Under the pieces are notes generated by a model. It saw only the letters and a list, made by a program, of their open reading frames with translations, was not told the origin of the DNA and made no database searches. A DNA stretch of 64,000 bases from an uncultured Candidatus Saccharibacteria bacterium (GTDB lineage: Bacteria; Patescibacteriota; WWE3; UBA101185; UBA10185), in NCBI GenBank assembly GCA_964434935.1, contig CAYSWS010000002.1, positions 8,320-72,319 on the forward strand. The letters are read 5' to 3'. Of this stretch, positions 2,571-60,351 are shown piece after piece (positions within the stretch are counted from its first letter, which is position 1; every line of letters begins with the position of its first letter). Both the position numbers and the translations under genes were made by a program.

Positions 2571-2613
2571 AACTCAATTTTATCAAAGGCCAAGGTTTTA
2601 GTAGAATGCAATT

Positions 2614-3750
2614 ATGAAGATGGCAATTGTTTGTGACGATCTCATACAGCACGGCGGTCACGAACATATAATCATGGAGTTTTGCCGGCTGTACCCTCAG
2701 GCCACGCTTTTTACTACCATGGCCACCAAAAAGTGGCAGACGATCTGCCGGGAAAACAAGATAGAGCTTAAGACCTCCTTCATGCAGAAGCTGCCTTTTA
2801 AGCGCAGATTAAATAGGTTTTACGCGCCTTTTCTCTTGTACATACTGGCTTTGGAGAGTTTTAGCTTTGACGATTATGACGTAGTGGTTTCTCTGACTTC
2901 GAGGTTTTCTCAAGGAGTGATAACCAAACCGGGCACCTTGCACATTTGTTATTTGAGCACGGTGGGTAGGATGTTTTGGGAACCTCAAGGGTATTTCATG
3001 CACGAAGGATTTGGCCGTTTACCGATCTTCAAAAAACTGGCCCGGACTTTTTTAAGCCTACCCCTTTCTTACATCAGGCTCTGGGACCGAACGGCTTCAC
3101 AGCGACCTGATATTTTCATCACCATTTCCAAGACCTCGCAGGAGAGGATCAGGAAATATTATCAGAGGGAAGCGCAAGTAATATACCCGCCGGTGGATAT
3201 TAGAAAGTATATTCCCGGACCGGCCACTGCCGGCGAGGATTATTTTTTAGTGGCCACCAGGCTGGCGTCGTGGAAGAGAGTGGACATAGCCATAAAAGCT
3301 TGCCTGGAGCAAAATATGAGGTTGAAGATCATGGGAGAAGGTCCGGATAAAAGCAGGTTGGAGAAACTAGCCGGCGGTTCGGATCTGATAAAATTCTTAG
3401 GTTTTGTGTCCGAAGCGGAAAAGATCTCTTATATGCAAAACTGTCAGGCCCTGATCATGACGCAGTTCGAAGATTTTGGGCTGGTGCCCATTGAGGCGGG
3501 TGCCTGTGGTAAGCCAACCATTGCCTTTGCCAAAGGTGGCGTGCTGGAAACCGTCGTAGAGGGCAGGACAGGCATGTTCTATGACGAACAGAACGAGCAT
3601 TCTCTGGGGCAGGTTTTAAAAAAGTTCGAGGCAAAAAAGTACCGGGCAGAAGATTGTCAGGCTCAGGCTAAAAAGTTCAGCTTAGAAGAATTTCAAAGCC
3701 GCATGAGCCGATCCGTATCAGACAACCTTAAAAGCTACAATGCACGTTAG
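2614..3750 (+). CDS. Glycosyltransferase family 4
   Basis: Motif EDFGLVPIEAGACGKPTIAFAKGGVLETV of the GT1 superfamily. 378 aa. Confidence 0.85.
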   Translation: MKMAIVCDDLIQHGGHEHIIMEFCRLYPQATLFTTMATKKWQTICRENKIELKTSFMQKLPFKRRLNRFYAPFLLYILALESFSFDDYDVVVSLTSRFSQGVITKPGTLHICYLSTVGRMFWEPQGYFMHEGFGRLPIFKKLARTFLSLPLSYIRLWDRTASQRPDIFITISKTSQERIRKYYQREAQVIYPPVDIRKYIPGPATAGEDYFLVATRLASWKRVDIAIKACLEQNMRLKIMGEGPDKSRLEKLAGGSDLIKFLGFVSEAEKISYMQNCQALIMTQFEDFGLVPIEAGACGKPTIAFAKGGVLETVVEGRTGMFYDEQNEHSLGQVLKKFEAKKYRAEDCQAQAKKFSLEEFQSRMSRSVSDNLKSYNAR

Positions 3751-3788
3751 CCTTGCTGTAGTGTATACTTTAATTATTAATCTCATAT

Positions 3789-4421
3789 ATGATCTATAAA
3801 GCAGGAAAAAGGATGTTCGACATTGTTGGTTCGCTGGTAGGTATTGTTTTATTTTCCCCGGTCATGTTCTTGGCCGCCCTTTGGATCAAACTCGTCTCTC
3901 CCGAAGGACCGGTCTTTGCCGATATTCCCAAAAGAGTAGGCAAGGACGGTCGAGAGTTTAATATGCTCAAATTCAGGTCCATGATTCCTAACGCTCAGAA
4001 ATGGCTTGAGGACAGACCCGAATGGCTGAAAAAATACCGCGAGAACAGTTACAAGTTGGACCCGGATCCCAGAATGATAAAAGGAGCTAAGTTCATAAGA
4101 AAGACCAGCATTGACGAAATGCCCCAATTCATAAACATCCTTTTAGGGCAAATGAGTCTGGTGGGTCCTAGGGCATACTTTCCTTTTGAACTGAGGGAAC
4201 AAATGTCGAGGTACCCGCAGACGGAAAAATATATAAAAAGGGTGCTGACCATAAAACCGGGCTTGACCGGTCCCTGGCAGGTGGGGGGCAGATCTGAGAT
4301 AGGTTTTGAAGAGAGGATCAAGATGGATGCGGAATATGCCACCAAAAGGTCATTGATCTACGACATATGCATAATAATAAAAACACCCTTGGTGGTTTTG
4401 TTGCAAAAGGGCGCAGTTTGA
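3789..4421 (+). CDS. Polyprenyl-phosphate sugar phosphotransferase (bacterial sugar transferase, WbaP/WcaJ/EpsL-like priming enzyme)
   Basis: N-terminal TM helix followed by the Bac_transf core: KRMFDIVGSLVGIVLFSP...KDGREFNMLKFRSM...PGLTGPWQVGGRSE. At 210 aa it matches the short single-domain priming transferases. Confidence 0.85.
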   Translation: MIYKAGKRMFDIVGSLVGIVLFSPVMFLAALWIKLVSPEGPVFADIPKRVGKDGREFNMLKFRSMIPNAQKWLEDRPEWLKKYRENSYKLDPDPRMIKGAKFIRKTSIDEMPQFINILLGQMSLVGPRAYFPFELREQMSRYPQTEKYIKRVLTIKPGLTGPWQVGGRSEIGFEERIKMDAEYATKRSLIYDICIIIKTPLVVLLQKGAV

Positions 4422-6445
4422 CTATCAGGAAAGGGAATGGTAAATTGCAAAATGTCGATGAAGAACCTACAATTAACTCCTCGGATTTATCACTTTCAAC
4501 CGGCCGCAAGATCCAGGATAATACTATGATTCAGGACAAATTTAGTGCCATTAAAACAAAGAATAAGAAGGGTTTGCTAAAAGGCTTTGGTGTTACAGGT
4601 GTTATTCTGCTGGCTTTGGGTAGCATCCTGCTGCTAATTTCCTACATTTTTGTTATCAGCCCGGCCCTTTCTCTCTATGGACATGTTAATACCTTAAAGA
4701 ACGATTTTTCCTCGATCTCGGAGGATCTCAGAGCTCGTGACCTGGTGGAATTGGAAAAAGCCACGCTGTTGACTGACGAAGATCTGGACGGTCTAAGAGC
4801 CGCCAGAGAAAGCAAGTTCGGTTGGGCCAAGAACATCTCATTTATGCGCATCAATGAGTTTTATAGCGATTCAGAAAGATTTATAAATGCCGGCCATTTG
4901 GGTATGGATGCTTTAAGAGAAACATCACGTATAGTCACGCCTTTTGCTGATGCCGCCGGTTTGCGAGTTTCTGAAGAGGAAGAGGCCGCGAGTGACGACA
5001 CGGGACTTATGGAAGCATTTCAATCCTGGGTTTCCATCATGCCTCAAGTGTCGGAGGAGATGGATGGCGTGCTGGATATACTCACCCGGATCGGCGAAGA
5101 GCTGGCCCCCATCGATACCTCAAAATATCCTGAATCCTTCAGGGGGGTGGCCGTACGAAATAACGTAGAGTTTGCCAAGAACTCCTTGGTTAATGCTAAA
5201 GAATATGGTCCCGACATTAAACGGGCGCTAGTGATCATTCCCGAACTTTTGGGTATCAATAGCGCTGTGGACAAAAGGTACATGGTCATCATGCAAAATG
5301 ATAAGGAAATAAGGCCTACGGGTGGTTTTTGGACCAATTACGCTACTTTCAAGATCAAAGATGGTTTGCTGCAATCGGATTTTACTTCCAAAGATTTTTA
5401 TAGTATCGATTATGCCATAGATGTCATTGATGCTTTTTATGATTTCCCGGACGCCCCGCCTGCCTATACAAAATATCTAAAAGTGGAAAGATGGTTTGCC
5501 AGAGATACCAACAGCTCGCCTGATCTGCCAACCTCCATAGACAACTTCATGTTCTATTACGATCTGGGTATGAAATACGATCCTGTAGACATTAAACCGG
5601 TAGACGGCATCATCACCATCGACACCAGGGTCATCGAAGAATTAATGAGCGTAACCGGTCCGGTTACCGTGAATGGCCTGACATACGATGCCGACAACGT
5701 GGTGCTTGAGCTGGAAAGAATAGCCTCTCTAAGCCAAAGAGAACAGATAAATAGAAAAGGCGTACTGGGAGACCTCATGGAAGCCATGCTCATAAACGTG
5801 TTCGAATCCCGAACCGATGTTTGGAGCAAGTTGATAGACACCTCCGTGGATCTGGCCGTAAGAAAACACATACAAGCGTATATGTTCAACGAAGAGGCAC
5901 AGGCATTATTGGAGAAATACAATTTTGCCGGTAGGATCAAGGACCCCGTAGAAGGTGATTACTCTTACGTGGTGCAAACCAATTTAGGTGGAGACAAAAC
6001 AAACTGGTTTGTCACCAAGGTGGTGGACCATGAATTAGCCAAGGAAGGTGATAGGTGGGTACGCACGGTAAAGATCACTTACACATATGACCAACCGGGG
6101 GAGGAATACGCACCTTTTGTTAAAAGGTTCAGAGATTGGGTGCGAGTGTACACACCTCTAAATACAGAGCTCATTAGTATCAATGGCAGTGAGGATGAAA
6201 CAGGTACCGGAGAAGAGAGAGGAAAGACATACTATCATGCCTATATTGAACTCGGTCCGGGAGAATCAAAAGAGATGACCTTTAGATACTACCTTCCTCA
6301 AGGGGTGATCAAGGACAATAAATATCAATTACTGATCCAAAAACAACCGGGTATAGATTCGGAGGTTCATGTTGTGACTACGCCCAGCAAATCATCTACT
6401 ATTGAGATTAATAAAGATTATACTTTTTCCACCACTTTGAATTAG
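4367..6445 (+). CDS. Large membrane-anchored protein, DUF4012-like, common in polysaccharide loci; an alternative start at 4526 (MIQDKF...) avoids the 55-nt overlap with the upstream gene
   Basis: One TM helix (GVTGVILLALGSILLLISYIFVI) precedes a roughly 600-aa extracytoplasmic domain. The motif VIMQNDKEIRPTGGFWTNYA resembles the QNxAExRxTGGF motif I associate with DUF4012. It sits immediately after the priming sugar transferase. Confidence 0.55.
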   Translation: MHNNKNTLGGFVAKGRSLTIRKGNGKLQNVDEEPTINSSDLSLSTGRKIQDNTMIQDKFSAIKTKNKKGLLKGFGVTGVILLALGSILLLISYIFVISPALSLYGHVNTLKNDFSSISEDLRARDLVELEKATLLTDEDLDGLRAARESKFGWAKNISFMRINEFYSDSERFINAGHLGMDALRETSRIVTPFADAAGLRVSEEEEAASDDTGLMEAFQSWVSIMPQVSEEMDGVLDILTRIGEELAPIDTSKYPESFRGVAVRNNVEFAKNSLVNAKEYGPDIKRALVIIPELLGINSAVDKRYMVIMQNDKEIRPTGGFWTNYATFKIKDGLLQSDFTSKDFYSIDYAIDVIDAFYDFPDAPPAYTKYLKVERWFARDTNSSPDLPTSIDNFMFYYDLGMKYDPVDIKPVDGIITIDTRVIEELMSVTGPVTVNGLTYDADNVVLELERIASLSQREQINRKGVLGDLMEAMLINVFESRTDVWSKLIDTSVDLAVRKHIQAYMFNEEAQALLEKYNFAGRIKDPVEGDYSYVVQTNLGGDKTNWFVTKVVDHELAKEGDRWVRTVKITYTYDQPGEEYAPFVKRFRDWVRVYTPLNTELISINGSEDETGTGEERGKTYYHAYIELGPGESKEMTFRYYLPQGVIKDNKYQLLIQKQPGIDSEVHVVTTPSKSSTIEINKDYTFSTTLN

Positions 6446-12412: not shown

Positions 12413-12766
12413 GTGGAAAAAAAAGCTAAAGGATCGGTTGGAGAAAAACTGGCCGCGCTTTATCTGCAAAGGAAAGGTTACAAGATCGTGGATACAAATT
12501 GGTATTGCCGTTGGGGAGAGATAGATATCATTGCTCTGGATCAAGAACACTTGGTGTTTGTGGAGGTCAAGTTCAGATGCACTTATAATTTTGGCGCAGC
12601 CAGCAGTGCTGTGCATGAGCACAAGTTAAGATCATTAAAAAGAAGTATTTGGCGTTATCTATATTTATACGACAAGTTCGACCGTCCCTGTCGTCTTGAT
12701 GTTATCAGCATACAGGGTGAAAATGGACGTTACCACTTAGAGCATTATAGATCTGTGGATTTTTAA
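12413..12766 (+). CDS. yraN: YraN family (UPF0102) putative endonuclease
   Basis: GEKLAALYLQRKGYKIVDTNWYCRWGEIDIIALDQEHLVFVEVKFR is the canonical UPF0102 PD-(D/E)xK-like core. Confidence 0.8.
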   Translation: MEKKAKGSVGEKLAALYLQRKGYKIVDTNWYCRWGEIDIIALDQEHLVFVEVKFRCTYNFGAASSAVHEHKLRSLKRSIWRYLYLYDKFDRPCRLDVISIQGENGRYHLEHYRSVDF

Positions 12767-13755
12767 CGATCTACCGGTGCGTCACTCTGGAGCTTGTTCA
12801 GGATATCAGTTTTAAAGGTTTGGTAATTACCGTCCAGCGGCACTACCGTCCAGGCACCTCCGTAATCTTCTGCCGGGGGTGAATAAAGGTATTCATAGTC
12901 GAGATATAAAGAACTAAATGTATATTTATCCTTGTCTTTGTAAAAATCCCAGAGATATTTGGTATCCGCTAGCTCAAGATTGGTGCTCATTCTGCCCTGG
13001 GTCACGGTTTTGAAAGCATTTTCCACTACCATGGGATTAAAAAGGCTGCTAGGCTGCATGATCGCCCTCAGCATACCGATCAAGATCTTGTGCTGCCTTC
13101 TCATGCGTGCCCAGTCGCTGCCTTCGCCGTTATCTCCCTTTCTTGACCGGGCAAAGACAAGGGCATCCTGGCCTGAAAGCTGTTCTTCGCCCTGGGTGAA
13201 AGTGACTGTTTGTATGTCCAAGGTCTCATCGACCGGGTAATTAGGGTCAGTAAAAGTTCTATCCACAGTGACCGGAACTCCGCCCATGGCATCTACAATC
13301 CAGGAAAAGTCTTCAAAATCGGTCAAAATGTATCTCTGGGGCTCAAGACCGGTAATTTCGGTCACGGCTCTTTTCATAGCCTCCCAGCCGGAATTTACGA
13401 ACAAACCGTTTATTTTACTTCCCTCATACCACAAGTCTCTGGGAATTGATGCCAGGACCACGTTGTTCTTTAAAGGATTAATAGACACCAGGATCATGAC
13501 GTCGCTTCTAAAACCATATTCCAGTTTGCTTCTCCTATCTATGCCCAAAAGTAGAATATTGATGGGATTGCCCAGCGGATAAAGTTCCTCGAGCCTTTGC
13601 GGCTGCTCTTTTTCTTTGGCCATCCTCGAAAAAGGACTTATAGTCACGCTGGTATCAGCACCAGCGGATCTTGGTTCCTTATTAGCTTGATGGGCCACAT
13701 AGCCCAAAACACCAAGAGAAATTACTAAAGTAATAGCTAATACTCGTTTCCACAT
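12763..13755 (-). CDS. LytR-CpsA-Psr (LCP) family cell-envelope phosphotransferase
   Basis: N-terminal TM helix then the LCP core NILLLGIDRR...RSDVMILVSINP. 330 aa. Confidence 0.85.
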   Translation of the reverse strand: MWKRVLAITLVISLGVLGYVAHQANKEPRSAGADTSVTISPFSRMAKEKEQPQRLEELYPLGNPINILLLGIDRRSKLEYGFRSDVMILVSINPLKNNVVLASIPRDLWYEGSKINGLFVNSGWEAMKRAVTEITGLEPQRYILTDFEDFSWIVDAMGGVPVTVDRTFTDPNYPVDETLDIQTVTFTQGEEQLSGQDALVFARSRKGDNGEGSDWARMRRQHKILIGMLRAIMQPSSLFNPMVVENAFKTVTQGRMSTNLELADTKYLWDFYKDKDKYTFSSLYLDYEYLYSPPAEDYGGAWTVVPLDGNYQTFKTDILNKLQSDAPVDR

Positions 13756-15106: not shown

Positions 15107-16492
15107 ATGGAAATTCCAAAAAATATATTCAGAAATTATGATATCAGAGGTACGTATCCAGAAGAGATAAACTACCAGAATTCAAAGCTTATAGGCAGAG
15201 TGCTGGGCACTCATATTTGGAAAAAAGGTTTTAATAATGTGGTTGTGGCCAGAGACGACAGAGAAAGCTCGCCCGAGATCTCTAAGGCTTTGATCGAAGG
15301 TTTGATCAGCACGGGATGTAATGTAACGGATATAGGCATCTCTTTAACACCGGTCATACATTTTCTTACTTGTACACAGAATTTTGATCTGGGAGTGGTG
15401 GTAACAGCCAGCCACAATCCCAAGCAGTTCAATGGTTTCAGGATAGATTACAAACACGCCAAATCCATGTATGGGGACCTTATACTTATGCTGAGGTTCA
15501 TGATCGAAAGGGAGGAGTTCTTGAGCGGAGAAGGCTCAGCGGAAGTAAAAGATCTTTCGCCTTATTATATAGACTATTTATCGGATAAATTCAATTTCAA
15601 GTCGTCTTTGAGAGTGGTCATTGATTGTGGTTGCGGAGCGGCCAGTGAGATAGCGCCCAAGATCTATCAGAACATTGGTTGCAGCGTCATCCCGGTGAAC
15701 TGCAATTATGATAGTAACTTTCCGCACGGTGTGCCCGACCCCGAGAACACTCTTTTTATGGATGAGATAAAAGAAAATGTCCTTAAACATAAGGCCGATG
15801 TTGGTTTTGGCTATGACACTGACGGGGATAGGTTTGGTGTGGTAGATGAAAAAGGTAATATTTACGACACGGACATGATCTTGCTTCTCTTCGCTGAGTA
15901 TGTGCTCAAGGAAAATCCCGGCAGGATAGTGTGCTACGACGTAAAATGTTCCTCGGCTGTGGACGACTATATTAGAAAGATGGGAGGTGTGCCTAAGATC
16001 ATGCGCACCGGACATCCCTATTTTGCCGAAGAAGTGCAAACCGAGGCAGTACTGGGAGCGGAGTTTTCAGGTCACGTGTATTTTTCCGACGACTATTTTG
16101 GCTATGACGATGGTGTATATGCTTCCTGCAGGGTATTAAAGATCATGCAGGAAAGCGGTAAAAGTTTATCTGAGCTTATGGCTAAGTACCCTAAGAAAGC
16201 CTCCACGCATGAGATAAAGGTCAGTTGCCCGGATGAAGAAAAGTTCAAAGTCGTGAACGGCATAAAAATATATCTCATGAACGAAGTTTCGTACCGAAAA
16301 ATGATAGATATTGATGGGGTGAGGGCCAACATTACGGATACCGGCTGGTTTTTGATCCGCGCTTCAAATACGTCGCCTTATTTAAGTATCAGGGTGGAGG
16401 GTAAGGACGAGGAGGAAAAGGAAAAAATATTGGAAATTGTGAGAAGCGCTTTAAAAAGTGTTAGTATTGTACAGTTGGAAATAAATTTTTAA
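15107..16492 (+). CDS. Phosphoglucomutase/phosphomannomutase family (alpha-D-phosphohexomutase)
   Basis: Active-site serine loop VTASHNPKQFNGFRI and the metal-binding DTDGDR motif. Confidence 0.85.
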   Translation: MEIPKNIFRNYDIRGTYPEEINYQNSKLIGRVLGTHIWKKGFNNVVVARDDRESSPEISKALIEGLISTGCNVTDIGISLTPVIHFLTCTQNFDLGVVVTASHNPKQFNGFRIDYKHAKSMYGDLILMLRFMIEREEFLSGEGSAEVKDLSPYYIDYLSDKFNFKSSLRVVIDCGCGAASEIAPKIYQNIGCSVIPVNCNYDSNFPHGVPDPENTLFMDEIKENVLKHKADVGFGYDTDGDRFGVVDEKGNIYDTDMILLLFAEYVLKENPGRIVCYDVKCSSAVDDYIRKMGGVPKIMRTGHPYFAEEVQTEAVLGAEFSGHVYFSDDYFGYDDGVYASCRVLKIMQESGKSLSELMAKYPKKASTHEIKVSCPDEEKFKVVNGIKIYLMNEVSYRKMIDIDGVRANITDTGWFLIRASNTSPYLSIRVEGKDEEEKEKILEIVRSALKSVSIVQLEINF

Positions 16493-52849: not shown

Positions 52850-52893
52850 TAATTAATTTTAGTCGAAATATTGTAAAATAACAGTACTAATTT

Positions 52894-52970
52894 GGACTCA
52901 TAGCTCAGTTGGTTAGAGCGTTCGGGTCACATCCGAAAGGCCCCAGGTTCGAATCCTGGTGAGTCCACCA
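52894..52970 (+). tRNA. tRNA-Val (anticodon CAC), CCA encoded
   Basis: Cloverleaf read by hand: acceptor GGACTCA/TGAGTCC, D-arm GCTC-AGTTGGTTA-GAGC, anticodon arm TTCGG-GTCACAT-CCGAA, T-arm CCAGG-TTCGAAT-CCTGG, ACCA tail. Confidence 0.9.
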
Positions 52971-52971
52971 A

Positions 52972-54288
52972 TTAATCAATGAACTCCTGCTGCAGCAGGC
53001 TCCACAGCTCAGCATAACCTCCGTCATAGCCCAGCGCCCATATACCCACTCCAGCCAGGTCCAGGTCATTGATCATGTCATATTTAACCTTCAGAGAATC
53101 CACATCGTCATAGAACACCTCACGCACAGAGCCTGTTTCCGGGCTTATATATGTGAAATAAGGTGTTTTTGCCAGATCATCCCACTTCACGTCAGGTTTT
53201 ACTGTAAGAACAGTCTCCATAATGGCTTCATAAGTTTGGGATTGAGAATATCCCGAATCATCACTGCCGCTTATGCGCTTGGCGTATTTGTCATCTCTTT
53301 CCACTACCCAGTTGTAGCCGTAGTAAGGTACTCCCAAAACGATCTTATTAGGTGGAACATAAGCTAGATAATCGTGCATCATGGTGCCCAGGTCGTATTC
53401 TGCATGAACACCTTTGCCGCCAATGGGAGAGACCGGTCCGGCTGTATCGGAAGAAGGACGGTGAAAATCATAGCCCATGATAAATATAAGATCAGCGGCT
53501 TTTCCCAGACCCTCGATATCAGTTATCCGGTCCTTGACCACGGAATCGGCAAAGGTTGAAACGGTCAAGGTTGAATCCCCGATGGTTTCGTCCAGTTTCT
53601 TGTTCAAAAAGTCAACAAATTCGGTGTATTGGCGAGCCTTTTCCTTGGGCGTATATTGCACATACTCAAAATTCAAATTCACATCCTTGATGTCTTTTTC
53701 GATAAGCTCGTTAATGATGTTGTTGGAAAGGTTAAGCCAGCACTCCCGACAATCGAGGAATTTATCGGAAACATCATCCACGTGTGAGATGATGGTCAGC
53801 GCAAAATTCACATTGTGCTTTTTAGCTTCAGCTATAATATCGGTAAGCTCTTTACTGTTCTTCCATTGATTGTAACCGGGTACCGTTTCTCCATTCTGGT
53901 ATTTAAGAAAATCACCGTTGGCATCGATGTAAAGCCCAAAATAAGCGATATCGGTCAGTTTATCGTATTGGAAATATTTAGCTTCTTCTAACGTCCAATA
54001 AGGTAAATAACCGTAAATTATTTTTTTGGGCGGTTCCCGCACATTGTTAAAAGACAAAATACTAAAGGAGCTACCCATAGGGGAAAGGATCTTAAGCTCG
54101 GGGTTTCTTTTATTTACAATGCGATCCAAACTAAAGAACGCTCCGGATAAAAGTACCAACACCAAAGATGCGACCATGGCAGTTTTAATCTTCACAAAAC
54201 TCATTTTACTTGAATTTATGCACTTTATGAAGATGTCGCGGCAAATGATAGAATATCCTTGTGCATAAAAGGCTTGTCTTGTATTCAA
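52972..54288 (-). CDS. Glycoside hydrolase family 18-like secreted protein (chitinase/YaaH-like fold); probable start at 54204 (MSFVKIK... signal peptide)
   Basis: Signal peptide/TM helix, a GH18-type motif ending in the catalytic Glu (KDVNLNFEY is a DxxNxNxE variant), and the C-terminal W-rich segment GVGIWALGYDGGY typical of GH18 barrels. Confidence 0.65.
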   Translation of the reverse strand: MNTRQAFYAQGYSIICRDIFIKCINSSKMSFVKIKTAMVASLVLVLLSGAFFSLDRIVNKRNPELKILSPMGSSFSILSFNNVREPPKKIIYGYLPYWTLEEAKYFQYDKLTDIAYFGLYIDANGDFLKYQNGETVPGYNQWKNSKELTDIIAEAKKHNVNFALTIISHVDDVSDKFLDCRECWLNLSNNIINELIEKDIKDVNLNFEYVQYTPKEKARQYTEFVDFLNKKLDETIGDSTLTVSTFADSVVKDRITDIEGLGKAADLIFIMGYDFHRPSSDTAGPVSPIGGKGVHAEYDLGTMMHDYLAYVPPNKIVLGVPYYGYNWVVERDDKYAKRISGSDDSGYSQSQTYEAIMETVLTVKPDVKWDDLAKTPYFTYISPETGSVREVFYDDVDSLKVKYDMINDLDLAGVGIWALGYDGGYAELWSLLQQEFID

Positions 54289-55436
54289 TAATTTCCTTTC
54301 TGGTCACTCTAACTGCTCTTTTGGGCATCTACTTCTTTGTCTTCCCTAAACAAGAATATGCTGTGAGGGAAGATATTTTAAGTTTTGTGCAGCACAGGAT
54401 ATATCAGAGCGGTAATTGTGACTATGGAGAGAGCCTGGGCTATGTAAGATATTCCGGAGACCAATGGGACAAGAACAATAAATTTGGTTTATATGTCTAC
54501 GCTGAGAACAGGAACTATTTTGAGTTTGCCCAACAGCTGGTAAATTCTCATGGCGGAGATTGGGGCTATGTTCTCATTCCTTTTAATGTTAAAGACAAAG
54601 ACATGGAAAAGTGGGGTAGAGTGTTCGAACAATTAAGGAACAAACATTTGATCCCAATAATACAGCTTTGGGATGTGGACCTGAATAAATATAAAGAGCA
54701 AACCAAAGAGGCGGCTGAGTTTCTAAACATCTTCATCTGGCCCATCAAAGAAAGATATGTCAGTGTTTATAATGAGCCCAATTCAGCCGATTTTTGGTAT
54801 GGTGCCATTGACCCTGCAGAGTATGCACAAATATTGGACTACACCATAAAAACTTTTAAAGATATGAACGGAGATTATTTTATGCTTAATGGGGCTTTTA
54901 ATGTCAGCGCTCCTACGGAGAAGAACCATTTGGACTCATTTATTTTTATGGAGAGAATGAACGAAGAGATACCTGGCATATTCGATGAGCTTGATGGCTG
55001 GGCCTCCCACTCTTATCCCCAGCCTAACTTCAGCGGCAGCCCATTTGCCAGCGGCAGGTGGAGCATCAGAGCTTACGAGAATGAGTTGGAAGAGTTAAAG
55101 CAGTTGGGTGTGACAAAAGAGCTGCCTGTCTTTATTACGGAAACCGGCTGGGCGCACGCCCAAGGCAAGGACCATAACGATAGCTATTATGATGCTGAGC
55201 TTGTGGCTGAGTATTTTAAGATTAGTTTTGAGCAAGTGTGGCTGCCGGATGATCGGGTGCGTGCTGTGACCCCATTTACCATTAGCTACCCCGCGCCTTT
55301 TGACCATTTTTCCTGGATAAACTCGGACTATGTGCCCTATAAACAGTACGATGAAATAAAGTCCATGGAAAAAGTGGCCGGGAATCCACCGCACTTTGAA
55401 GAAGATAGTTTAAGAATTTCAGGCTGCAATGAATAA
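54261..55436 (+). CDS. Membrane-anchored putative clan GH-A (GH5-like) glycoside hydrolase
   Basis: N-terminal TM helix, acid/base-type motif VSVYNEPN and nucleophile-type motif PVFITETGW about 120 aa downstream, the spacing expected for (beta/alpha)8 clan A enzymes. Confidence 0.5.
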   Translation: MHKRLVLYSIISFLVTLTALLGIYFFVFPKQEYAVREDILSFVQHRIYQSGNCDYGESLGYVRYSGDQWDKNNKFGLYVYAENRNYFEFAQQLVNSHGGDWGYVLIPFNVKDKDMEKWGRVFEQLRNKHLIPIIQLWDVDLNKYKEQTKEAAEFLNIFIWPIKERYVSVYNEPNSADFWYGAIDPAEYAQILDYTIKTFKDMNGDYFMLNGAFNVSAPTEKNHLDSFIFMERMNEEIPGIFDELDGWASHSYPQPNFSGSPFASGRWSIRAYENELEELKQLGVTKELPVFITETGWAHAQGKDHNDSYYDAELVAEYFKISFEQVWLPDDRVRAVTPFTISYPAPFDHFSWINSDYVPYKQYDEIKSMEKVAGNPPHFEEDSLRISGCNE

Positions 55437-56703
55437 ACAGACAACCTCATTTAAAATAGCTACCAACACGGTTTACCAATTCATCGGCAAAGCCGGCACC
55501 ATGTCCATTACTATATTAGCTACCATTCTTATCACCAGGCTTTATGGCAGAGAGGCCTATGGGCAATTCAGCCTCATGCAAGGATGGCCGGCACTCATGT
55601 TCATTATTGTGGACTTTGGTTTTAACGCCATTGCCACCAGGGAATTGAGTAAAGACTTTAGCCGCGTAGCAAAGATCCTAGGCAGTATTCTGGTCATCAG
55701 GATCCTGGTTTCCCTGTTTTTTATAGTTCTCCTGGCTGTACTGTTGACATTTTTTCCCTATTCTGCGACTCTAAAGTTTGGCATTCGCTTGAGCTTGTTC
55801 CTCATCCTCACGCAGTCCCTTTTCACCACAGCTAACGTGGTTTTTCAAACCAAACTCAGATATGACCTTTCCACTTACTCCCTGTTTGCAGGATATCTGG
55901 TAGTCCTAGCCGCAGTAGCGATCTTTTCTTATCTACGCATAAGTGTGATATGGATAAGTTTTAGCTATGTGATAGGGGGGTTTGTGACCTTTTTAACTTC
56001 TCTGTATTTTCTTAACCGTATTGGTGTGCCCATAAAATTAACCTATGATCGAGCCACGGCCAAATACTTGTTCTGGCAAACACTACCTTTAGGCATCATG
56101 TTCATTTTTAGCCAGATCAATTTCAAGGATGATGAGATACTGCTCTCAATTTTAAGACTGCCACAAAAATATAACTTGACCAACACCGAATCAGTAGCTG
56201 TTTACGCCCTACCTTATAAAGTATTCGAAGTCGCTTTAGTGGTACCGACCTTTTTCATGAATGCCGTCTATCCGGTCATGGTGCGCCACATGACGGAGAG
56301 TTCGCACAAGCTGAAAAAGACCTTTTTGTCTTCTATGAAAGTACTGATATTTGCCGGTATACTGTCAGGTTTGATGGGCATAACGCTTTCCAAGCCGGCT
56401 ATTGACCTTCTGGGAGGTTCAGAATTTATGCAGTCGGTTATAGTGCTGAAGATACTTTTAGGAGGTTTGATCTTTTATTATTTAACGCAACCTTTGTCCT
56501 GGCTGATCGTGACCCTAGGAAAACAAGTTTACCTGCCTTACATTTACTTATCTGCCGCTATTTTTAACTTTATAGCCAACCTTGTCTTTATCCCCAGATA
56601 TTCTTTTTACGCGGCGGCTATAATTACTCATTCATCCGAAGTCTTGATCCTCATTCTTTTAATTGCCGCTGCCAGGAAGGCTTGGAAATTAAATTATGCT
56701 TAA
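55429..56703 (+). CDS. Polysaccharide biosynthesis protein / oligosaccharide flippase (Wzx, MOP superfamily)
   Basis: Twelve or more TM helices. The N-terminal IATNTVYQFIGKAGTMSITILATILITRLYGREAYGQFS is typical of Polysacc_synt (Wzx) proteins. Confidence 0.75.
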   Translation: MNKQTTSFKIATNTVYQFIGKAGTMSITILATILITRLYGREAYGQFSLMQGWPALMFIIVDFGFNAIATRELSKDFSRVAKILGSILVIRILVSLFFIVLLAVLLTFFPYSATLKFGIRLSLFLILTQSLFTTANVVFQTKLRYDLSTYSLFAGYLVVLAAVAIFSYLRISVIWISFSYVIGGFVTFLTSLYFLNRIGVPIKLTYDRATAKYLFWQTLPLGIMFIFSQINFKDDEILLSILRLPQKYNLTNTESVAVYALPYKVFEVALVVPTFFMNAVYPVMVRHMTESSHKLKKTFLSSMKVLIFAGILSGLMGITLSKPAIDLLGGSEFMQSVIVLKILLGGLIFYYLTQPLSWLIVTLGKQVYLPYIYLSAAIFNFIANLVFIPRYSFYAAAIITHSSEVLILILLIAAARKAWKLNYA

Positions 56704-57886
56704 ATTGGGGTTTTACGGCAGTGTATTTGCCCTCTTATTAGGCCAACTAGCCTTGATAGGCACCTTGGGTGAGACAAAAATTTATCTTTTCGATCTTGTA
56801 ATGGCGGCTCTTGCCATATTGGGGACATTACAGCTCTTGTTAAAGTCAGGGCAGCTCAAGATATCACTGTTTTTGGCCCCGTTTTATATTTTTTGTCTAT
56901 TGGCTGGAGTGTCTTTGGTTTTTAACGCAGCTAGTTTGGATGGCAGAGATATGTTGGAGGCTGTTTCTTATTTAGCCAGGTTCATTATTTATGTTTCGGC
57001 CGCCAATGTGGTTTATAACATGCTTTGCCTTGGCATCATCGACATTTCCCGTATCGGTAAAACTTATGTTCTTTCGGCCTTGGCGTTGTCTGTGGCCGGT
57101 TTTATACAACTAAAAGTTCTACCCGATTTTTCAGTGCTGGATCAGGCGCTGGGATGGGACCCGCATAAGTTTAGGTTGGCCTCAACATTTTTCGATCCAA
57201 ATTATGTAGGTGGATTTTTGGTCCTGACGCTGACATTTCTCTTATTTAAAGACGATCTCTTTACAGGCAAAAATGCTCTGAAGAAAAAACAATTCTTTGT
57301 CTTAATTTCCATTACTTTACTGGCCGTATTCTTGACCTACTCACGAAGCGCCTGGGGCATGCTGGGCGTAATGCTCTTTATTTATGGCCTGGCCAGATCG
57401 CCCAAGATCATATTTTTGTCTCTGATCTTAGCTTTTTTCACTTATTTTGCTGTGCCCAGGATACAAACCCGTTTGGCCGGCATCACCGATCCGGCCGATT
57501 CGGCCCAATTCAGACTCATATCCTGGAAAAACACCTTAAATATTGCCAAGGATAATCTATTTTTAGGTGTAGGTTTTAATAATTTTAAGAACTCCCAAGT
57601 GGCGTACGGTTATTTGACACCGGATACTATAAAAGACCATAGCGCCGCCGGCTCGGATTCCAGTTTACTACTGGTGCTGGCCACAACAGGTATTATGGGT
57701 TTTCTTGTCTTTACCGCGGGCATGCTTATGCCTATTGTAAAAACAAAAAGTCTCTACAGTTTGGTAGCGATCGTGCCCCTGCTGCTGGAATCAAATTTTG
57801 TGAATTCACTGTTCTATCCCCAGATCATGTTTTTATGGCTTGTTATGTTCGCTCTGATGGAATATGGTAAAAAGGCTTTAAGTTAA
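56696..57886 (+). CDS. O-antigen ligase / Wzy_C family membrane protein
   Basis: Multi-TM protein with the Wzy_C hallmark loop LTYSRSAWGMLGVMLF. It overlaps the flippase stop by 8 nt. Confidence 0.7.
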   Translation: MLKLGFYGSVFALLLGQLALIGTLGETKIYLFDLVMAALAILGTLQLLLKSGQLKISLFLAPFYIFCLLAGVSLVFNAASLDGRDMLEAVSYLARFIIYVSAANVVYNMLCLGIIDISRIGKTYVLSALALSVAGFIQLKVLPDFSVLDQALGWDPHKFRLASTFFDPNYVGGFLVLTLTFLLFKDDLFTGKNALKKKQFFVLISITLLAVFLTYSRSAWGMLGVMLFIYGLARSPKIIFLSLILAFFTYFAVPRIQTRLAGITDPADSAQFRLISWKNTLNIAKDNLFLGVGFNNFKNSQVAYGYLTPDTIKDHSAAGSDSSLLLVLATTGIMGFLVFTAGMLMPIVKTKSLYSLVAIVPLLLESNFVNSLFYPQIMFLWLVMFALMEYGKKALS

Positions 57887-57889
57887 GGC

Positions 57890-58633
57890 TTATTCGGACT
57901 CTTTTTGATATTTAATGTTAAAAGCCTCGATTTTGGAGTTTCCGGCCTCGTCAACCGCCTCGACGGTTATTTTGACATCCCCTTCGACCACTCCCAGTAA
58001 ATATTCAAAAGTGAGATCCGGCTTTTGCACCACCAGTTTTTTATTTATAGTGATCTTCGCCTTTTCGCTGACCTTGCCCCTGATGAGAACACGTTCATTA
58101 AGGTTTTTTATGGTATCACCGGGTTTAGGACTTTCAATGTCTATGTCCGGCTTGCTATTGTCGACCATGATGATCTGGGTTTCTGACTTTTCGCTCTCGT
58201 GGCCTTTTTCATCGACTGATTTAGCAAAAACAGTATTCCTGGATTCTATAAGAAAGATGTTTTCGAACATGAATTTGCCTTCGGCATCAGCTATAACCTC
58301 ACCTTTTTCCGGTCCGTTCACGAATATCTTCACGGTCGAACCCGGCGCGGCATAGCCCTCAATATTAATTGTGTCTTGATTGGTAGCTTTAGGCAGATCG
58401 GCAAACGAAGGAGGGTTTACGGTAACGTCGGCTATGGTGTCCTCATCATTTTTGTGTATGGAGACAAAGCCCAGTAGAGCCCCAATTTCAGGTCCAAAGA
58501 AATTCAATATGAGGAGCCCGCCAAGGAGAAAACCAAAAATGCCCAATAAGCTCATCCTTAGTCTTTTAGACAACTGCTCCTGGTCATATTTTTGTGTCGG
58601 TTTGCGCCTGCGGCTAGTGTACGATGTGGTCAT
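57890..58633 (-). CDS. Membrane-anchored Ig-like (Big-type) domain protein
   Basis: Basic N-terminus and TM helix, then beta-rich repeats (GSTVKIFVNG...ADAEGKF; GDTIKNLNERVLIRGKV...TVEAVDEAGNS) resembling bacterial Ig-like domains. Confidence 0.5.
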   Translation of the reverse strand: MTTSYTSRRRKPTQKYDQEQLSKRLRMSLLGIFGFLLGGLLILNFFGPEIGALLGFVSIHKNDEDTIADVTVNPPSFADLPKATNQDTINIEGYAAPGSTVKIFVNGPEKGEVIADAEGKFMFENIFLIESRNTVFAKSVDEKGHESEKSETQIIMVDNSKPDIDIESPKPGDTIKNLNERVLIRGKVSEKAKITINKKLVVQKPDLTFEYLLGVVEGDVKITVEAVDEAGNSKIEAFNIKYQKESE

Positions 58634-58651
58634 AAAAAAATTCTAACAAAT

Positions 58652-59560
58652 TTACCTCACGGTAGCTTTTAGAAACTTGTTAAACTCCTTTTTAATATCT
58701 TTTCTTTGCTGAGCGTATTTCACGGTGGCTTTCAAGTAGTTCAGGGGATCTCCCGTGGTCAGCCACTCACCTTCGATAGGCAGAGCTATAACGGTTCTAC
58801 CTTGATTTGCCAGATTAGAGATGGCGTCAGTAAGCCACAGTTCGTTGCCTTTGCCCTTTTTTGTCTTGCTCAAAGCATCAACTACCTCATAGGAAAGTAC
58901 GAACCTGCCAAACTGAGCCATGCGCGAAGGTGCCTCCTTTATGGTGGGTTTTTCTATGATGTCTTCAACGGCGTATGGTATCTTCGAATACTTTTTATAT
59001 TTGAAAATGCCGTATTTGACCACTTCTTTCCTGGGCACTTCTTGCGCAGCTATAACGGCGGTAGGCTTGTACTTGTAAAAAGTGTTGATAAGCTGTTTGA
59101 CCACAGGCTTTTTGGATAACGTAAGATCATCACCGAACATGTAGACCACGGCCTCGTCATCATCTATAAGACTTTTGGCTGCCAAGAGGGGAGAGCCGTT
59201 GCCGTAGGGAAGGTGTTTTTGCCTCACGTAGATGAAGTTGGCCATATCAGGAATATTCCGTACCATTTCCAGTTGTTTGGTTTTTCCGGATTCTTTTAAG
59301 GAGTTTTCGATCTCATAATGACTGTCAAAATAGTCTTCCATGATGTGGTGGCCGGCCCTGGTGACGAGAATGATGTCTTTTATGCCTGAGTTGACTGCTT
59401 CTTCGACCAAATAATGAATGATGGGTTTATCAATGATGGGTAGCATTTCTTTAGGCTGGTTCTTAGTGGCAGGCAAAAATCTGGTGCCGTAGCCAGCGGC
59501 GGCTATAACGGCTTTGGTGATAGGTCTGTCCTTTTTCATAGTAATATCTATTATACCCAA
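58652..59560 (-). CDS. galU: UTP--glucose-1-phosphate uridylyltransferase
   Basis: KAVIAAAGYGTRFLPATKNQPKEMLPIIDKPIIHYLVEEAVNSGI nucleotidyltransferase signature and a VEKP motif region. 302 aa. Confidence 0.88.
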   Translation of the reverse strand: MGIIDITMKKDRPITKAVIAAAGYGTRFLPATKNQPKEMLPIIDKPIIHYLVEEAVNSGIKDIILVTRAGHHIMEDYFDSHYEIENSLKESGKTKQLEMVRNIPDMANFIYVRQKHLPYGNGSPLLAAKSLIDDDEAVVYMFGDDLTLSKKPVVKQLINTFYKYKPTAVIAAQEVPRKEVVKYGIFKYKKYSKIPYAVEDIIEKPTIKEAPSRMAQFGRFVLSYEVVDALSKTKKGKGNELWLTDAISNLANQGRTVIALPIEGEWLTTGDPLNYLKATVKYAQQRKDIKKEFNKFLKATVR

Positions 59561-59638
59561 TTGTAGTCACAAAAAAAGAAGACGCCACGTCTAGTTTATA
59601 ACTAAAAATGGCGTCCGGAATGTTTAAAAAACCAGATT

Positions 59639-60076
59639 CTAAGACAAGATGGCTCTTAGCAAGTATAAAACTGCTAGTGCAGCAGCTATAAAACCAATAA
59701 GAAGAAACCTTTTACCGTGCGCACTAGTTTCGTAGCATTTTTCTCTGTTTTCTTCAGCCTGCTGTCTCAACAAAGATCCCTGGTTTTTTAGCTCTAGAGC
59801 TTCTAGTCTTATTGCATCTGCCTCTGCTTTAAGACTTTCAGCCTCATCAATATCTCCTAGAATAGAAAGTTGAGTTGAAGTTAAGTACGCTTGTGATGAT
59901 TGATGCGCTTTTCTTGTTGATGTGGTGAAATAATTTGTCGACTGGTTATCGATGGAAGCTGATTCTAGGAAGCAGCTTGCAGCAATATTGAACTGTGTGA
60001 TTCCAATTAACAACAGCGTATTAGCTACAAGGAATAAGGATGTGTTTGAGAATCCAAATTTTACCCTTTTAGACAT
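59639..60076 (-). CDS. Hypothetical membrane protein (two terminal TM helices flanking a coiled-coil segment)
   Basis: TM1 is LFLVANTLLLIGI, the coiled-coil segment is EAESLKAEADAIRLEALELKNQ, and TM2 is LLIGFIAAALAVLYLL. No family recognised. Confidence 0.45.
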   Translation of the reverse strand: MSKRVKFGFSNTSLFLVANTLLLIGITQFNIAASCFLESASIDNQSTNYFTTSTRKAHQSSQAYLTSTQLSILGDIDEAESLKAEADAIRLEALELKNQGSLLRQQAEENREKCYETSAHGKRFLLIGFIAAALAVLYLLRAILS

Positions 60077-60167
60077 CTTATCTCCTCTTTTCTATTGTAA
60101 AGGACAGTTTTCATTATTATACCAATAAGGCTATATGTAGTCAACCTATAGTACGTTTAAAGTGGAG

Positions 60168-60242
60168 TGGAGCCAGCGGTCGGAGTCGAACCGACGACCC
60201 ATCCCTTACGAAGGGATTGCTCTACCTCTGAGCTACGCTGGC
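60168..60242 (-). tRNA. tRNA-Thr (anticodon CGT)
   Basis: Reverse complement is GCCAGCG-TA-GCTCAGAGGTAGAGC-A-ATCCC-TTCGTAA-GGGAT-GGGTC-GTCGG-TTCGACT-CCGAC-CGCTGGC-TCCA. Confidence 0.9.
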
Positions 60243-60254
60243 AAGCCAAAAAGT

Positions 60255-60329
60255 TGGAGCGGGTGATGGGATTCGAACCCACGATCTTCTCCTTGGGAAG
60301 GAGACGCTTTACCACTAAGCCACACCCGC
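60255..60329 (-). tRNA. tRNA-Gly (anticodon CCC)
   Basis: Reverse complement is GCGGGTG-TG-GCTTAGTGGTAAAGC-G-TCTCC-TTCCCAA-GGAGA-...-TTCGAAT-...-CACCCGC-TCCA. It lies 12 nt from tRNA-Thr. Confidence 0.9.
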
Positions 60330-60351
60330 AAAGGTTGGGCTAGCATATTAT

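Follow-up and report, generated by a model that had tools for sequence, protein, structure and literature searches.

The window analyzed here, a stretch of 64,000 nucleotides, is a division and cell-wall region of a WWE3-like Patescibacterium, and contains genes for MraW, FtsI, an LCP protein, PGM, PBP1, MurA, FtsW, MurG, FtsQ, FtsA, FtsZ, and a second FtsW/RodA. Within it, seven ORFs fill the interval between tRNA-Val and tRNA-Thr (Table 1). ARAGORN reproduced exactly the coordinates that the original prediction had given for tRNA-Val and for the tRNA-Thr/tRNA-Gly pair, and all of the genes it had listed (a GH18, a second glycosidase, Wzx, a Wzy_C protein, an Ig-like protein, GalU, and a small membrane protein) are present. 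The 3' end of tRNA-Val lies 1 nt from the stop codon of the GH18 gene, which is divergent from the second glycosidase gene (ORF2), as had been described, at a spacing of 56 bp. Pfam matches and hydrophobic segments also bear out the pairing of membrane-anchored hydrolases with a flippase and a Wzy_C protein.

Table 1. Features of the tRNA-bounded interval and of putative partner loci, in positions of the window.
Feature	Position	Strand	Basis	Remark
Three GT4 glycosyltransferases, Bac_transf initiating phosphoglycosyl transferase (3789-4421), DUF4012 protein	297..6445		Pfam	Putative partners
LytR-CpsA-Psr (LCP) protein	12763..13755	-	PF03816, E 4e-30	Putative partner
Phosphoglucomutase/phosphomannomutase	15107..16492	+	Four PGM_PMM domains	Putative partner
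tRNA-Val(cac)	52894..52970	+	ARAGORN	Conserved positional landmark
GH18 glycosidase, membrane-anchored, YaaH/YdhD (SleL) type	52972..54204	-	PF00704	410 aa
ORF2, membrane-anchored clan GH-A (beta/alpha)8 glycosidase, PslG-like	54261..55436	+	Structure and motif	
Wzx-type (MOP superfamily) flippase	55429..56703	+	PF01943	424 aa
Wzy_C-family (WaaL/Wzy/O-OTase fold) polytopic membrane protein	56696..57886	+	PF04932	396 aa
Ig-like protein, membrane-anchored, two Ig-like domains	57890..58633	-	Pfam	Fifth core member
GalU-like UTP-glucose-1-phosphate uridylyltransferase	58652..59539	-	TIGR01099	UDP-glucose supply; accessory to cassette
cc145	59639..60076	-	No family match	Lineage-specific ORFan, 145 aa, in GalU/tRNA-Thr slot
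tRNA-Thr(cgt)	60168-60242	-	ARAGORN	Conserved landmark
tRNA-Gly(ccc)	60255-60329	-	ARAGORN	Conserved landmark
tRNA-Asp(gtc)	61068-61144	-	ARAGORN	

The interval had been proposed to be a tRNA-bounded island carrying a variable module. Several features are in line with this: like tRNA-associated genomic islands, it is flanked on either side by tRNA genes, next to which relatives carry small variable genes; in these relatives, the slot between tRNA-Val and GH18 holds 0–6 kb of variable genes. Within the interval, only GalU and the ORFan cc145 are variable, the latter with an atypical GC3 of 0.315 (the window averages 0.48). By tetranucleotide distance, the interval ranked 4th of 57 windows, a mild deviation that we ascribe to the change of strand and to the genes for membrane proteins. 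However, among 52 species-level relatives, the order of a five-gene core (GH18, ORF2, Wzx, Wzy, and Ig) was constant, save for a block inversion in 3, and the genes themselves were nearly always present (GH18 in 42/42, Wzx in 48/48, Wzy in 45/45, and Ig in 39/41). The recurring order was SPase I, tRNA-Val, GH18, ORF2, Wzx, Wzy, Ig, (GalU), tRNA-Thr, tRNA-Gly, LysM, tRNA-Asp, PolX, and LemA, and was seen in contigs whose GH18 is 51–72% identical. Of the 40 relatives that could be judged, 36 have tRNA-Val in the same place, with signal peptidase I on one side and GH18 on the other; tRNA-Thr was kept in 35/36 and tRNA-Gly in 21/31, with their order unchanged. tRNA-Val is thus a conserved positional landmark rather than an integration site.

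Composition also failed to set the cassette apart: the GC profile across the interval is flat, and neither GC3 (p = 0.95) nor codon usage (p = 0.32) distinguishes the cassette from the remainder of the window. A search of the window for repeats of tRNA fragments of at least 14 nt, including partial copies of tRNA-Val, returned none; neither att-like repeats nor, in Pfam and NCBIfam profile searches, an integrase were found. Divergence of the cassette correlates with that of the flanking housekeeping genes (Spearman up to 0.89). Hence, in contrast to genomic islands, the interval lacks an integrase, direct repeats, compositional deviation, and presence/absence polymorphism of its core. The conserved order in relatives and the normal composition refute the island reading for the core. 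We regard it as very unlikely that the interval represents a horizontally acquired, tRNA-targeted island, the hydrolases of which might act on chitin-like or beta-glycan polymers of a host in an epibiotic lifestyle. Taken by itself, the processing of host glycans is neither strengthened nor weakened by these findings.

GH18s of Patescibacteria are usually interpreted as chitinases (PMC9868632), but the sequence of the GH18 encoded here (104.8 bits against PF00704, cut-off 29.6) points to a YaaH-type enzyme and not to a canonical chitinase, as its closest PDB sequence matches are YaaH (4s3k, E 8e-19) and YdhD (3cz8, E 8e-17). Its motif reads K-D-V-N-L-N-F-E, in which Asn replaces both canonical Asp residues, while the Glu is retained. 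Among 121 homologs, N176 was found in 120 and E180 in all 121, while position 178 was exclusively Asn (110) or Asp (11); M243, Y245, D246, W389, C152, and C155 were invariant. The conservation of the N-x-N-x-E residues, together with the invariance of the other catalytic residues, suggests that this protein probably acts as an enzyme and not as a lectin. The GH18 barrel and a relaxed D-x-x-D-x-D-x-E motif are shared with YaaH (D-I-H-F-D-F-E) and YdhD (T-I-D-F-E) of the Bacillus spore cortex. Unlike these, the WWE3 protein lacks LysM domains, in place of which it carries an N-terminal membrane anchor (one hydrophobic segment, residues 1–30), and in most homologs Asn takes the place of the Asp that lies two positions ahead of the catalytic Glu. 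An invariant C-x-x-C-W motif further distinguishes it from YaaH, and the organism, unlike the Bacillus hosts, is not known to sporulate. YaaH/SleL acts as an N-acetylglucosaminidase on cortex peptidoglycan fragments (PMC10653849), and the substitutions ChiB-D142N and ChiA-D313N lowered Km and raised transglycosylation (PMC5505975).

For ORF2, Pfam returned only a GH39 match below threshold (16.1 bits, cut-off 26) and no match to GH5/Cellulase, and NCBIfam returned none. A total of 3666 homologs was found, and none of the best 120 listed carried a Pfam domain. The AF2 model is a TIM barrel (pLDDT 90.3), for which the best Foldseek match was PslG (5bx9, E 1.4e-12, TM 0.55, 14% identity), followed in order by GH79, GH39, GH30, GH128, GH2, GH53, and GH5. 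The best PDB sequence match was also PslG, spanning the NEP motif. Two motifs are invariant, N171-E172-P-N174 and I292-T-E294-T-G-W297, in which E172 (N-E-P) and E294 (T-E-T-G) are candidate catalytic residues. We therefore consider ORF2, which has a single N-terminal hydrophobic anchor, a member of an unannotated clan GH-A family that lacks a Pfam entry. The description of this protein as GH5-like holds at the level of the clan, but at the family level it is PslG/GH39-like, and GH5 is not demonstrable. Paralogs away from Wzx/Wzy, between MutL and RecG in WWE3 and as a 580-aa form in Daviesbacteria, indicate that the family is not intrinsically tied to the Wzx/Wzy pathway. Within the cassette, however, the stop of ORF2 overlaps the start of Wzx by 8 nt, and the stop of Wzx overlaps the start of the Wzy_C gene, again by 8 nt; both overlaps recur in contig L005. 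This translational coupling points toward a self-made substrate.

Both the flippase and the Wzy_C protein pass their Pfam thresholds. The flippase, which contains multiple hydrophobic segments, matched PF01943 (58.2 bits) and the NCBIfam model Wzx_EPS (E 1.9e-8). The Wzy_C protein (59.8 bits against PF04932) yielded a confident AF2 model (pLDDT 92.2, pTM 0.92), the sole significant PDB neighbor of which was WaaL (7tpg, TM 0.60), followed by FtsW (8bh1, 0.41); solved polymerase structures gave no significant match. Invariant residues include R95, H157, R160, R217, R255, R259, and R273. Based on sequence and model, this protein is predicted to be a glycan polymerase or ligase, between which the fold cannot discriminate, given that WaaL was the only significant match. 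Although WaaL belongs to the same Wzy_C Pfam family, its acceptor is lipid A-core, and WWE3 genomes lack LPS biosynthesis genes while being rich in glycosyltransferases (PMC3812714), which rules out the canonical WaaL reaction.

A ligase could nevertheless act in protein O-glycosylation. The Wzy_C protein would then be an O-oligosaccharyltransferase (PglL/TfpO/WsaB-like) or other ligase, by which the flipped lipid-linked glycan is transferred, rather than polymerized, to surface proteins such as an S-layer or pilin, and the hydrolases would edit this glycan. The similarity to WaaL fits this reading, as do the best NCBIfam match, a "putative O-glycosylation ligase" model (under its cut-off), and the lack of a chain-length regulator in the cassette. 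Gram-positive S-layer O-OTases contain a Wzy_C domain as well, and the LPS-free WWE3 have been suggested to possess glycoproteins or a glycosylated S-layer (PMC3812714). On the other hand, the conserved block contains no gene for an acceptor (S-layer or pilin), and the LCP ligase and LytR_C protein encoded in the window suit a route from polymer to wall. In addition, PglL-type enzymes usually exceed the length of this Wzy_C protein. We therefore hold O-glycosylation to be a less probable alternative.

The Ig-like protein, with a single hydrophobic segment (residues 24–59), matched Big_13 (31.6 bits) and Glucodextran_B (45.9 bits), with no match among PDB sequences, and may serve as a scaffold or in glycan binding. 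GalU matched TIGR01099 over its full length (E 5e-83, 278.6 bits), under the equivalog cut-off of 326.8. It adjoins the Ig gene in 26/42 loci; in 3 of these 42, the vicinity of the Ig gene contains Ugd instead, with or without a GT2, and in 13, none of GalU, Ugd, or GT2 was found there. cc145 contains two hydrophobic segments flanking a charged, helix-like middle. It matched no family in Pfam or NCBIfam, found only itself among 1.84 billion representative proteins, and was absent from the loci of relatives except on a contig of the same strain (L001). A promoter-like site at 60144-60116 (-), matching 11/12 consensus positions, lies near this gene.

The cassette always adjoins FtsW/RodA-LytR_C, inside the division/cell-wall region, a location that would be accounted for if GH18 and ORF2 were autolysins acting in wall growth and in the separation of daughter cells, and the flippase transported lipid II or some modified precursor. 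The closest characterized relatives of the GH18 target peptidoglycan, some orthologous flippases show weak Pfam matches to MurJ, and MurJ was not found within the window. The flippase itself, however, scores as Polysacc_synt/Wzx, with no match to the MurJ NCBIfam model at E <= 0.01; PslG and other clan GH-A enzymes are not known to hydrolyze peptidoglycan; and peptidoglycan synthesis needs neither a Wzy_C protein nor GalU. A module centered on peptidoglycan is thus improbable.

The cassette resembles known surface-glycan systems. PslG, PslK (Wzx), and PslJ (Wzy) form a documented trio in the Psl pathway of Pseudomonas aeruginosa, where correct biosynthesis depends on PslG, which also serves as a failsafe by cutting misdirected polymer (PMC13434223). 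Both loci combine a Wzx flippase and a Wzy_C-family protein with a clan GH-A endoglycanase anchored in the membrane. Unlike Psl, a biofilm operon, the cassette is part of the conserved core and lies next to division genes in an LPS-free, probably monoderm organism; it lacks PCP/OPX (PslE/PslD), PslA, and glycosyltransferases, and has an additional GH18 and Ig-like protein. No glycosyltransferase, initiating transferase, or chain-length regulator was found inside the cassette. From pathway logic, the GT4/phosphoglycosyl transferase cluster some 50 kb away may provide its cytoplasmic partners, the LCP protein is a candidate ligase joining polymer to peptidoglycan, and PGM/PMM would give glucose-1-phosphate to GalU.

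With these, the window as a whole matches the parts list of Gram-positive loci for Wzx/Wzy capsules or secondary cell-wall polymers: Bac_transf, GT4s, Wzx, Wzy_C, an LCP ligase, and nucleotide-sugar enzymes. The general logic of such pathways is exemplified by pneumococcal cps (CpsE, GTs, Wzx, Wzy, and the LCP protein CpsA). In contrast to cps, the WWE3 parts are spread over approximately 55 kb rather than a single operon, no CpsBCD-type tyrosine-kinase regulator was seen, and the cassette is conserved rather than serotype-variable, with two hydrolases as integral members.

Taken together, we consider it probable that the interval is a vertically inherited core envelope cluster of WWE3, most likely the extracytoplasmic half of a Wzx/Wzy-type surface-glycan pathway. 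UDP-glucose would be made by PGM and GalU, and assembly of a lipid-linked repeat unit would fall to GT4 enzymes and the initiating phosphoglycosyl transferase, the genes of which lie elsewhere in the window. This unit would be flipped over the membrane by Wzx and polymerized by the Wzy_C protein, after which the LCP enzyme would join the polymer to the wall. By analogy with PslG, ORF2 may be a retaining endoglycanase that trims or clears the polymer, which favors the self-glycan remodeling originally suggested for these hydrolases. The target of the GH18 would be a GlcNAc-containing glycan, either peptidoglycan or the linkage region of the polymer; its natural Asn-x-Glu center probably lowers hydrolysis, and perhaps favors transglycosylation. 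The Ig-like protein would be a conserved accessory. Located at the edge of the division/cell-wall region, this cassette recurs in dozens of ultra-small relatives (WWE3/Patescibacteria).

Seven ORFs fill the interval between tRNA-Val and the tRNA-Thr/tRNA-Gly pair without gaps. Profile searches against Pfam and NCBIfam bore out the gene names and the glycan theme that the original prediction had given to it, and ARAGORN returned identical coordinates for the three tRNAs, so that the gene content is confirmed (see table). GH18 and ORF2 are divergently transcribed with a spacing of 56 bp. The GH18, ORF2, and Ig-like proteins have one hydrophobic anchor apiece, at the N-terminus. The wider window contains genes for MraW, FtsI, an LCP protein, a histidine kinase, PGM, PBP1, UvrABC, MurA, FtsW, MurG, FtsQ, FtsA, FtsZ, two RNRs, IleRS, a second FtsW/RodA, and LytR_C, and is a WWE3-like division and cell-wall region. 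The two large ribonucleotide reductase genes adjoin each other and encode proteins of 836 aa (TSCPD domain) and 712 aa (ATP-cone).

Features of the interval and its surroundings. The last column gives presence in cassette-type loci of relatives, counted only where the flanking sequence sufficed to judge.
Feature	Position	Strand	Evidence	Judgeable loci
Glycosyltransferase cluster	297-6445			
LCP protein	12763-13755			
PGM	15107-16492			
Two large ribonucleotide reductases	40526-45181			
SPase + L27				35/38
tRNA-Val(cac)	52894-52970	+	ARAGORN	36/40
GH18	52972-54204	-	PF00704, 104.8 bits (cut-off 29.6; profile positions 3-317 of 317)	42/42
ORF2	54261-55436	+	GH39, sub-threshold only	
Wzx-type flippase			PF01943 (Polysacc_synt), 58.2 bits (cut-off 28.2)	48/48
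Wzy_C protein			PF04932, 59.8 bits (cut-off 31.7)	45/45
Ig-like protein			Big_13 + Glucodextran_B domains	39/41
GalU-like nucleotidyltransferase			TIGR01099, E 5e-83	
cc145	59639-60076	-	145 aa, two hydrophobic segments, family-less	
Promoter-like site	60144-60116	-	11/12 consensus positions	
tRNA-Thr(cgt)	60168-60242	-	ARAGORN	35/36
tRNA-Gly(ccc)	60255-60329	-	ARAGORN	
LysM protein	60414-60947	-		22/31
tRNA-Asp(gtc), additional	61068-61144	-	ARAGORN	
PolX				22/31

The interval had been proposed to be a tRNA-bounded island. More than 1,300 homologs of its GH18 protein were found, and those with a source name were all labelled WWE3 or Patescibacteria. Six contigs bearing GH18 orthologs of 72, 64, 57, 54, 53, and 51% identity were compared, and all six shared the same arrangement, in which GH18 diverges from ORF2-Wzx-Wzy and the latter converge with the Ig-like gene. 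The left flank, consisting of FtsW/RodA, LytR_C, RNHCP, L21, L27, and signal peptidase I, was also kept in five of the six, and the three contigs checked for tRNAs all had tRNA-Val(cac) and tRNA-Thr(cgt) in the equivalent places. With each GTDB species represented by one genome, a profile scan detected an ORF2 relative in at least 586 genomes. Among 80 loci examined, 52 were of the cassette type, and the core was present in all of those that could be judged, apart from the Ig-like gene, which was found in 39 of 41. In three loci (L041, L042, and L050), GH18-ORF2-Wzx-Wzy is inverted en bloc between tRNA-Val and the Ig-like gene, and LytR_C is flipped as well; the inversion of the four genes as a unit indicates that this block moves together.

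No partial copies of at least 14 nt of any of the four tRNAs were present in the 64-kb window, including direct repeats of a tRNA 3′ end, and tRNA-fragment k-mers of 11-14 nt matched at chance level only. Direct and inverted repeats in general were likewise at chance level, comprising short two-copy families and a resemblance between tRNA-Val and tRNA-Asp, with nothing att-like among them, and no recombinase or integrase was detected by Pfam and NCBIfam among the ORFs of at least 140 aa in 52295-60947. GC content is flat (0.39-0.46 within the interval, against 0.39-0.49 elsewhere in the window), and the cassette genes deviate from the other 36 window genes neither in GC3 (Mann-Whitney p = 0.95) nor in synonymous codon usage (codon chi-square p = 0.32). 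By tetranucleotide distance, the interval stands out only mildly (rank 4 of 57 windows), and cc145, the small ORF between GalU and tRNA-Thr, is its only compositionally deviant gene. In addition, the identity of cassette proteins to those of the window correlates with that of SPase, LytR_C, PolX, and LemA (Spearman rho 0.39-0.89, highest for Wzx against LemA), which fits the expectation under vertical descent. As tRNAs are dense and syntenic in these tiny genomes, bounding by tRNAs is no sign of mobility. Conserved order together with an absence of compositional deviation was named by the original prediction itself as the outcome that refutes an island, and this is what we found. The interval is almost certainly a conserved core, an ordinary envelope locus of its lineage, and a variable island acting on host glycans is highly improbable.

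Variation is small in extent and confined to the immediate vicinity of the tRNAs. The tRNA-Val/GH18 slot contains no genes in the window, where a single nucleotide (52971) separates the tRNA 3′ end from the GH18 stop codon. In six relatives (L005, L006, L007, L009, L039, and L058), the same slot holds 0.4-6 kb of unrelated genes, with contents that include a beta-lactamase-like gene, an MFS fragment with a gene for a 247-aa protein, and a D-Ala-D-Ala ligase (Ddl) gene. This slot is a local indel hot spot by a conserved tRNA. On the other side, the Ig-like gene has GalU as its neighbor in 26 of 42 loci. In 3 others, Ugd lies nearby instead, sometimes accompanied by a GT2, and the remaining 13 had no match to GalU, Ugd, or GT2 near the Ig-like gene. 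These swaps suggest a lineage-specific change in the sugar supplied, glucose versus glucuronic acid. In some lineages (L006, L008, L010, and L044), a UDP-glucose 6-dehydrogenase gene, with or without GT2, lies near the cassette where GalU is missing.

In L005 and L007, only tens of bases separate GalU from tRNA-Thr, a slot that is occupied by cc145 here. The cc145 protein matched itself alone among 1.84 billion representative proteins and was absent from all relatives except a contig of the same strain, and its gene has a GC3 of 0.315, compared to about 0.48 for the window; by sequence comparison, it is a true ORFan. A promoter and terminator scan was at or under shuffle expectation overall; the best promoter-like site of the region, and the one strong one, lies upstream of cc145. 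Further along, between tRNA-Gly and tRNA-Asp, a LysM protein gene has the most atypical codon usage of the window (scaled chi-square 0.69, GC3 0.33) and is retained in relatives despite this; its product contains a long, low-complexity, acidic linker rich in serine and threonine.

ORF2 had been described as GH5-like, a designation that held at the level of clan GH-A and failed at the level of the family, as no match to PF00150 (GH5 cellulase) was obtained at E <= 0.01. Its best Pfam match was GH39, at 16.1 bits against a cut-off of 26. Neither Pfam nor NCBIfam assigned it to a family, and none of the best 120 of its 3666 homologs contained a Pfam domain. Two motifs, Y-N-E172-P-N (which includes N171-E172-P) and I-T-E294-T-G-W297, are invariant in 55 aligned sequences and match the clan GH-A signatures of the acid/base and the nucleophile. 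In the AlphaFold model, which is confident (pLDDT 90.3), an N-terminal transmembrane helix precedes strands and helices in alternation. Its top Foldseek match in the PDB was PslG, the endoglycosidase of the Pseudomonas aeruginosa Psl pathway, with moderate similarity (E 1.4e-12, TM 0.55, 14% identity), followed by GH79, GH39, GH30, GH128, GH2, GH53, and GH5 enzymes. Among the 50 matches listed (E 1.4e-12 to 7e-08), every one that could be assigned to a family belonged to clan GH-A, with GH5 structures far down at rank 46. Similarly, the best PDB sequence match of the ORF2 profile was PslG, spanning the NEP motif. ORF2 is therefore predicted to be a retaining (β/α)8 glycosidase of clan GH-A, with the two glutamates placed on strands 4 and 7 by the secondary-structure string of the model.

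The likeness to PslG extends to the genomic context. ORF2, Wzx, and Wzy are linked by start/stop overlaps of 8 nt, both in the window and in L005, which indicates one translationally coupled unit. PslG, an endoglycosidase anchored in the membrane, is encoded together with PslK (Wzx) and PslJ (Wzy). Normal Psl biosynthesis requires it, and a role in clearing misdirected polymer has been proposed for it (PMC13434223). The Psl pathway also has a PCP (PslE) and an OPX (PslD) export component. Neither type turned up in the interval or among the other window ORFs scanned, an absence to be expected where there is no outer membrane. A second WWE3 paralog of ORF2 is located between MutL and RecG (L061, L067, and L071), and Daviesbacteria/Microgenomates (L082, L085, and L087) encode a secreted form of about 580 aa between tRNA-Arg(tct) and tRNA-His(gtg). 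No Wzx or Wzy genes were found next to either, so these relatives add no support for a functional coupling.

The GH18 protein departs from the canonical D-x-x-D-x-D-x-E motif in the way that had been predicted, as it reads K-D-V-N176-L-N178-F-E180, with asparagine at both aspartate positions. Among 121 homologs, N176 is present in 120, and position 178 is asparagine in 110 and aspartate in 11, and never any other residue. E180, M243, Y245, D246, and W389 are invariant in all 121. The catalytic roles of E180, the M-x-Y-D motif, and the C-terminal tryptophan are presumably those of ChiB and other GH18 enzymes, and the conservation of M243-x-Y245-D246 and W389 suggests that the enzyme still works by substrate-assisted catalysis on a 2-acetamido sugar. 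Chitinase-like lectins lose the catalytic glutamate; unlike theirs, the residue pattern here points, to judge from the alignment, to an active site under constraint. An inactive chi-lectin was judged less likely, in view of the invariant Glu and Tyr-Asp and the restriction of position 178 to Asn or Asp. In Serratia ChiA and ChiB, an engineered Asp-to-Asn exchange at the equivalent position lowered the Km and raised transglycosylation (PMC5505975), which by analogy makes a bias toward transglycosylation or slow hydrolysis plausible. A C152-x-x-C155-W156 motif is invariant in the 121 homologs, specific to the subfamily, and absent from the aligned region of YaaH; it might form a disulfide or serve as a metal/redox site. 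The nearest solved structures are YaaH/SleL and YdhD of Bacillus. SleL works on fragments of cortex peptidoglycan as an N-acetylglucosaminidase (PMC10653849). Even with such neighbors and a window of division genes, a module centered on peptidoglycan is very unlikely; the two genes coupled to ORF2 encode proteins that score as Wzx and Wzy_C.

A crude Kyte-Doolittle scan detected at least 9 hydrophobic segments in the Wzx protein. Its assignment as MurJ was set aside, as this 424-aa protein scores as Wzx and has no NCBIfam match to MurJ at E <= 0.01. Of 42 nucleotidyltransferase models, TIGR01099 fitted the GalU-like protein best; the match spans the whole profile (1-261), and its 278.6 bits lie below the equivalog cut-off of 326.8. 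No PDB sequence matches were obtained for the Ig-like protein or the Wzy_C protein. The model of the latter (pLDDT 92.2, pTM 0.92) had the WaaL ligase (7tpg) as its sole significant Foldseek neighbor (TM 0.60, E 7e-6), with FtsW following weakly; because only WaaL matched significantly, the predicted fold does not separate a polymerase from a ligase. Candidate roles are those of a polymerase, a wall ligase, or a protein O-oligosaccharyltransferase. WWE3 genomes are reported to be rich in glycosyltransferases and to lack LPS genes, with neither lpxC nor kdsA present, and their surface has been proposed to bear polysaccharides, glycoproteins, or a glycosylated S-layer (PMC3812714). Given this lack of LPS genes, the canonical WaaL reaction is unlikely. 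Literature searches found no publications on WWE3 and O-antigen ligase. A protein O-glycosylation module, in which the Wzy_C protein would be an O-OTase or ligase, would suit the proposed glycoproteins; we consider such a module rather unlikely. The protein matched an NCBIfam O-glycosylation ligase model with 47.9 bits, far under the cut-off of 188.

We favor, with moderate confidence, a reading in which the cassette provides the extracytoplasmic steps of a surface-glycan pathway of the Wzx/Wzy type, in a Patescibacterium that resembles monoderms. The glycosyltransferase cluster, at a distance of about 50 kb, encodes three GT4 glycosyltransferases, a small Bac_transf initiating phosphoglycosyl transferase (PGT), and a 692-aa DUF4012 protein, and is a candidate for the cytoplasmic half. 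Together with the LCP protein and PGM, it appears to cover every cytoplasmic and ligation step missing from the cassette, a link that we infer. In the proposed pathway, PGM and GalU would supply UDP-glucose, and a lipid-linked unit made by the PGT and GT4 enzymes would be flipped by Wzx and polymerized by the Wzy_C protein, after which the LCP enzyme would join the polymer to the wall. ORF2 would trim or clear polymer in the manner of PslG, and GH18 would remodel a GlcNAc-containing glycan, either peptidoglycan or a linkage unit. A bolder version would make the five-gene block of GH18, ORF2, Wzx, the WaaL-fold Wzy_C protein, and the Ig-like anchor a lineage-defining envelope-assembly machine of WWE3, in which Wzy_C is a ligase, the naturally Asp-to-Asn GH18 serves mainly in transglycosylation, by which a GlcNAc-containing polymer is grafted or remodeled onto peptidoglycan or an S-layer, and ORF2 is the founder of a new glycoside hydrolase family; we regard this as distinctly unlikely.

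Literature searches found no prior description of the conserved cassette, and what is new here is limited to this cassette, the unannotated clan GH-A family, and the GH18 subfamily with its conserved N-x-N-x-E center. The attractive tRNA-island reading was wrong and is corrected. Metagenomic surveys usually count enzymes such as these as chitin or cellulose degradation potential (PMC9868632). In WWE3 genomes, GH18 and the second glycosidase are fixed parts of an envelope-biogenesis cassette by the division genes, which affects how inventories of carbohydrate-active genes in Patescibacteria are read. Two tractable targets for biochemistry emerge: the Pfam-less ORF2 family, with at least 3666 homologs, an occurrence in at least 586 species-level genomes, and clear clan GH-A catalytic residues, and the GH18 subfamily with a conserved Asn-x-Glu center.
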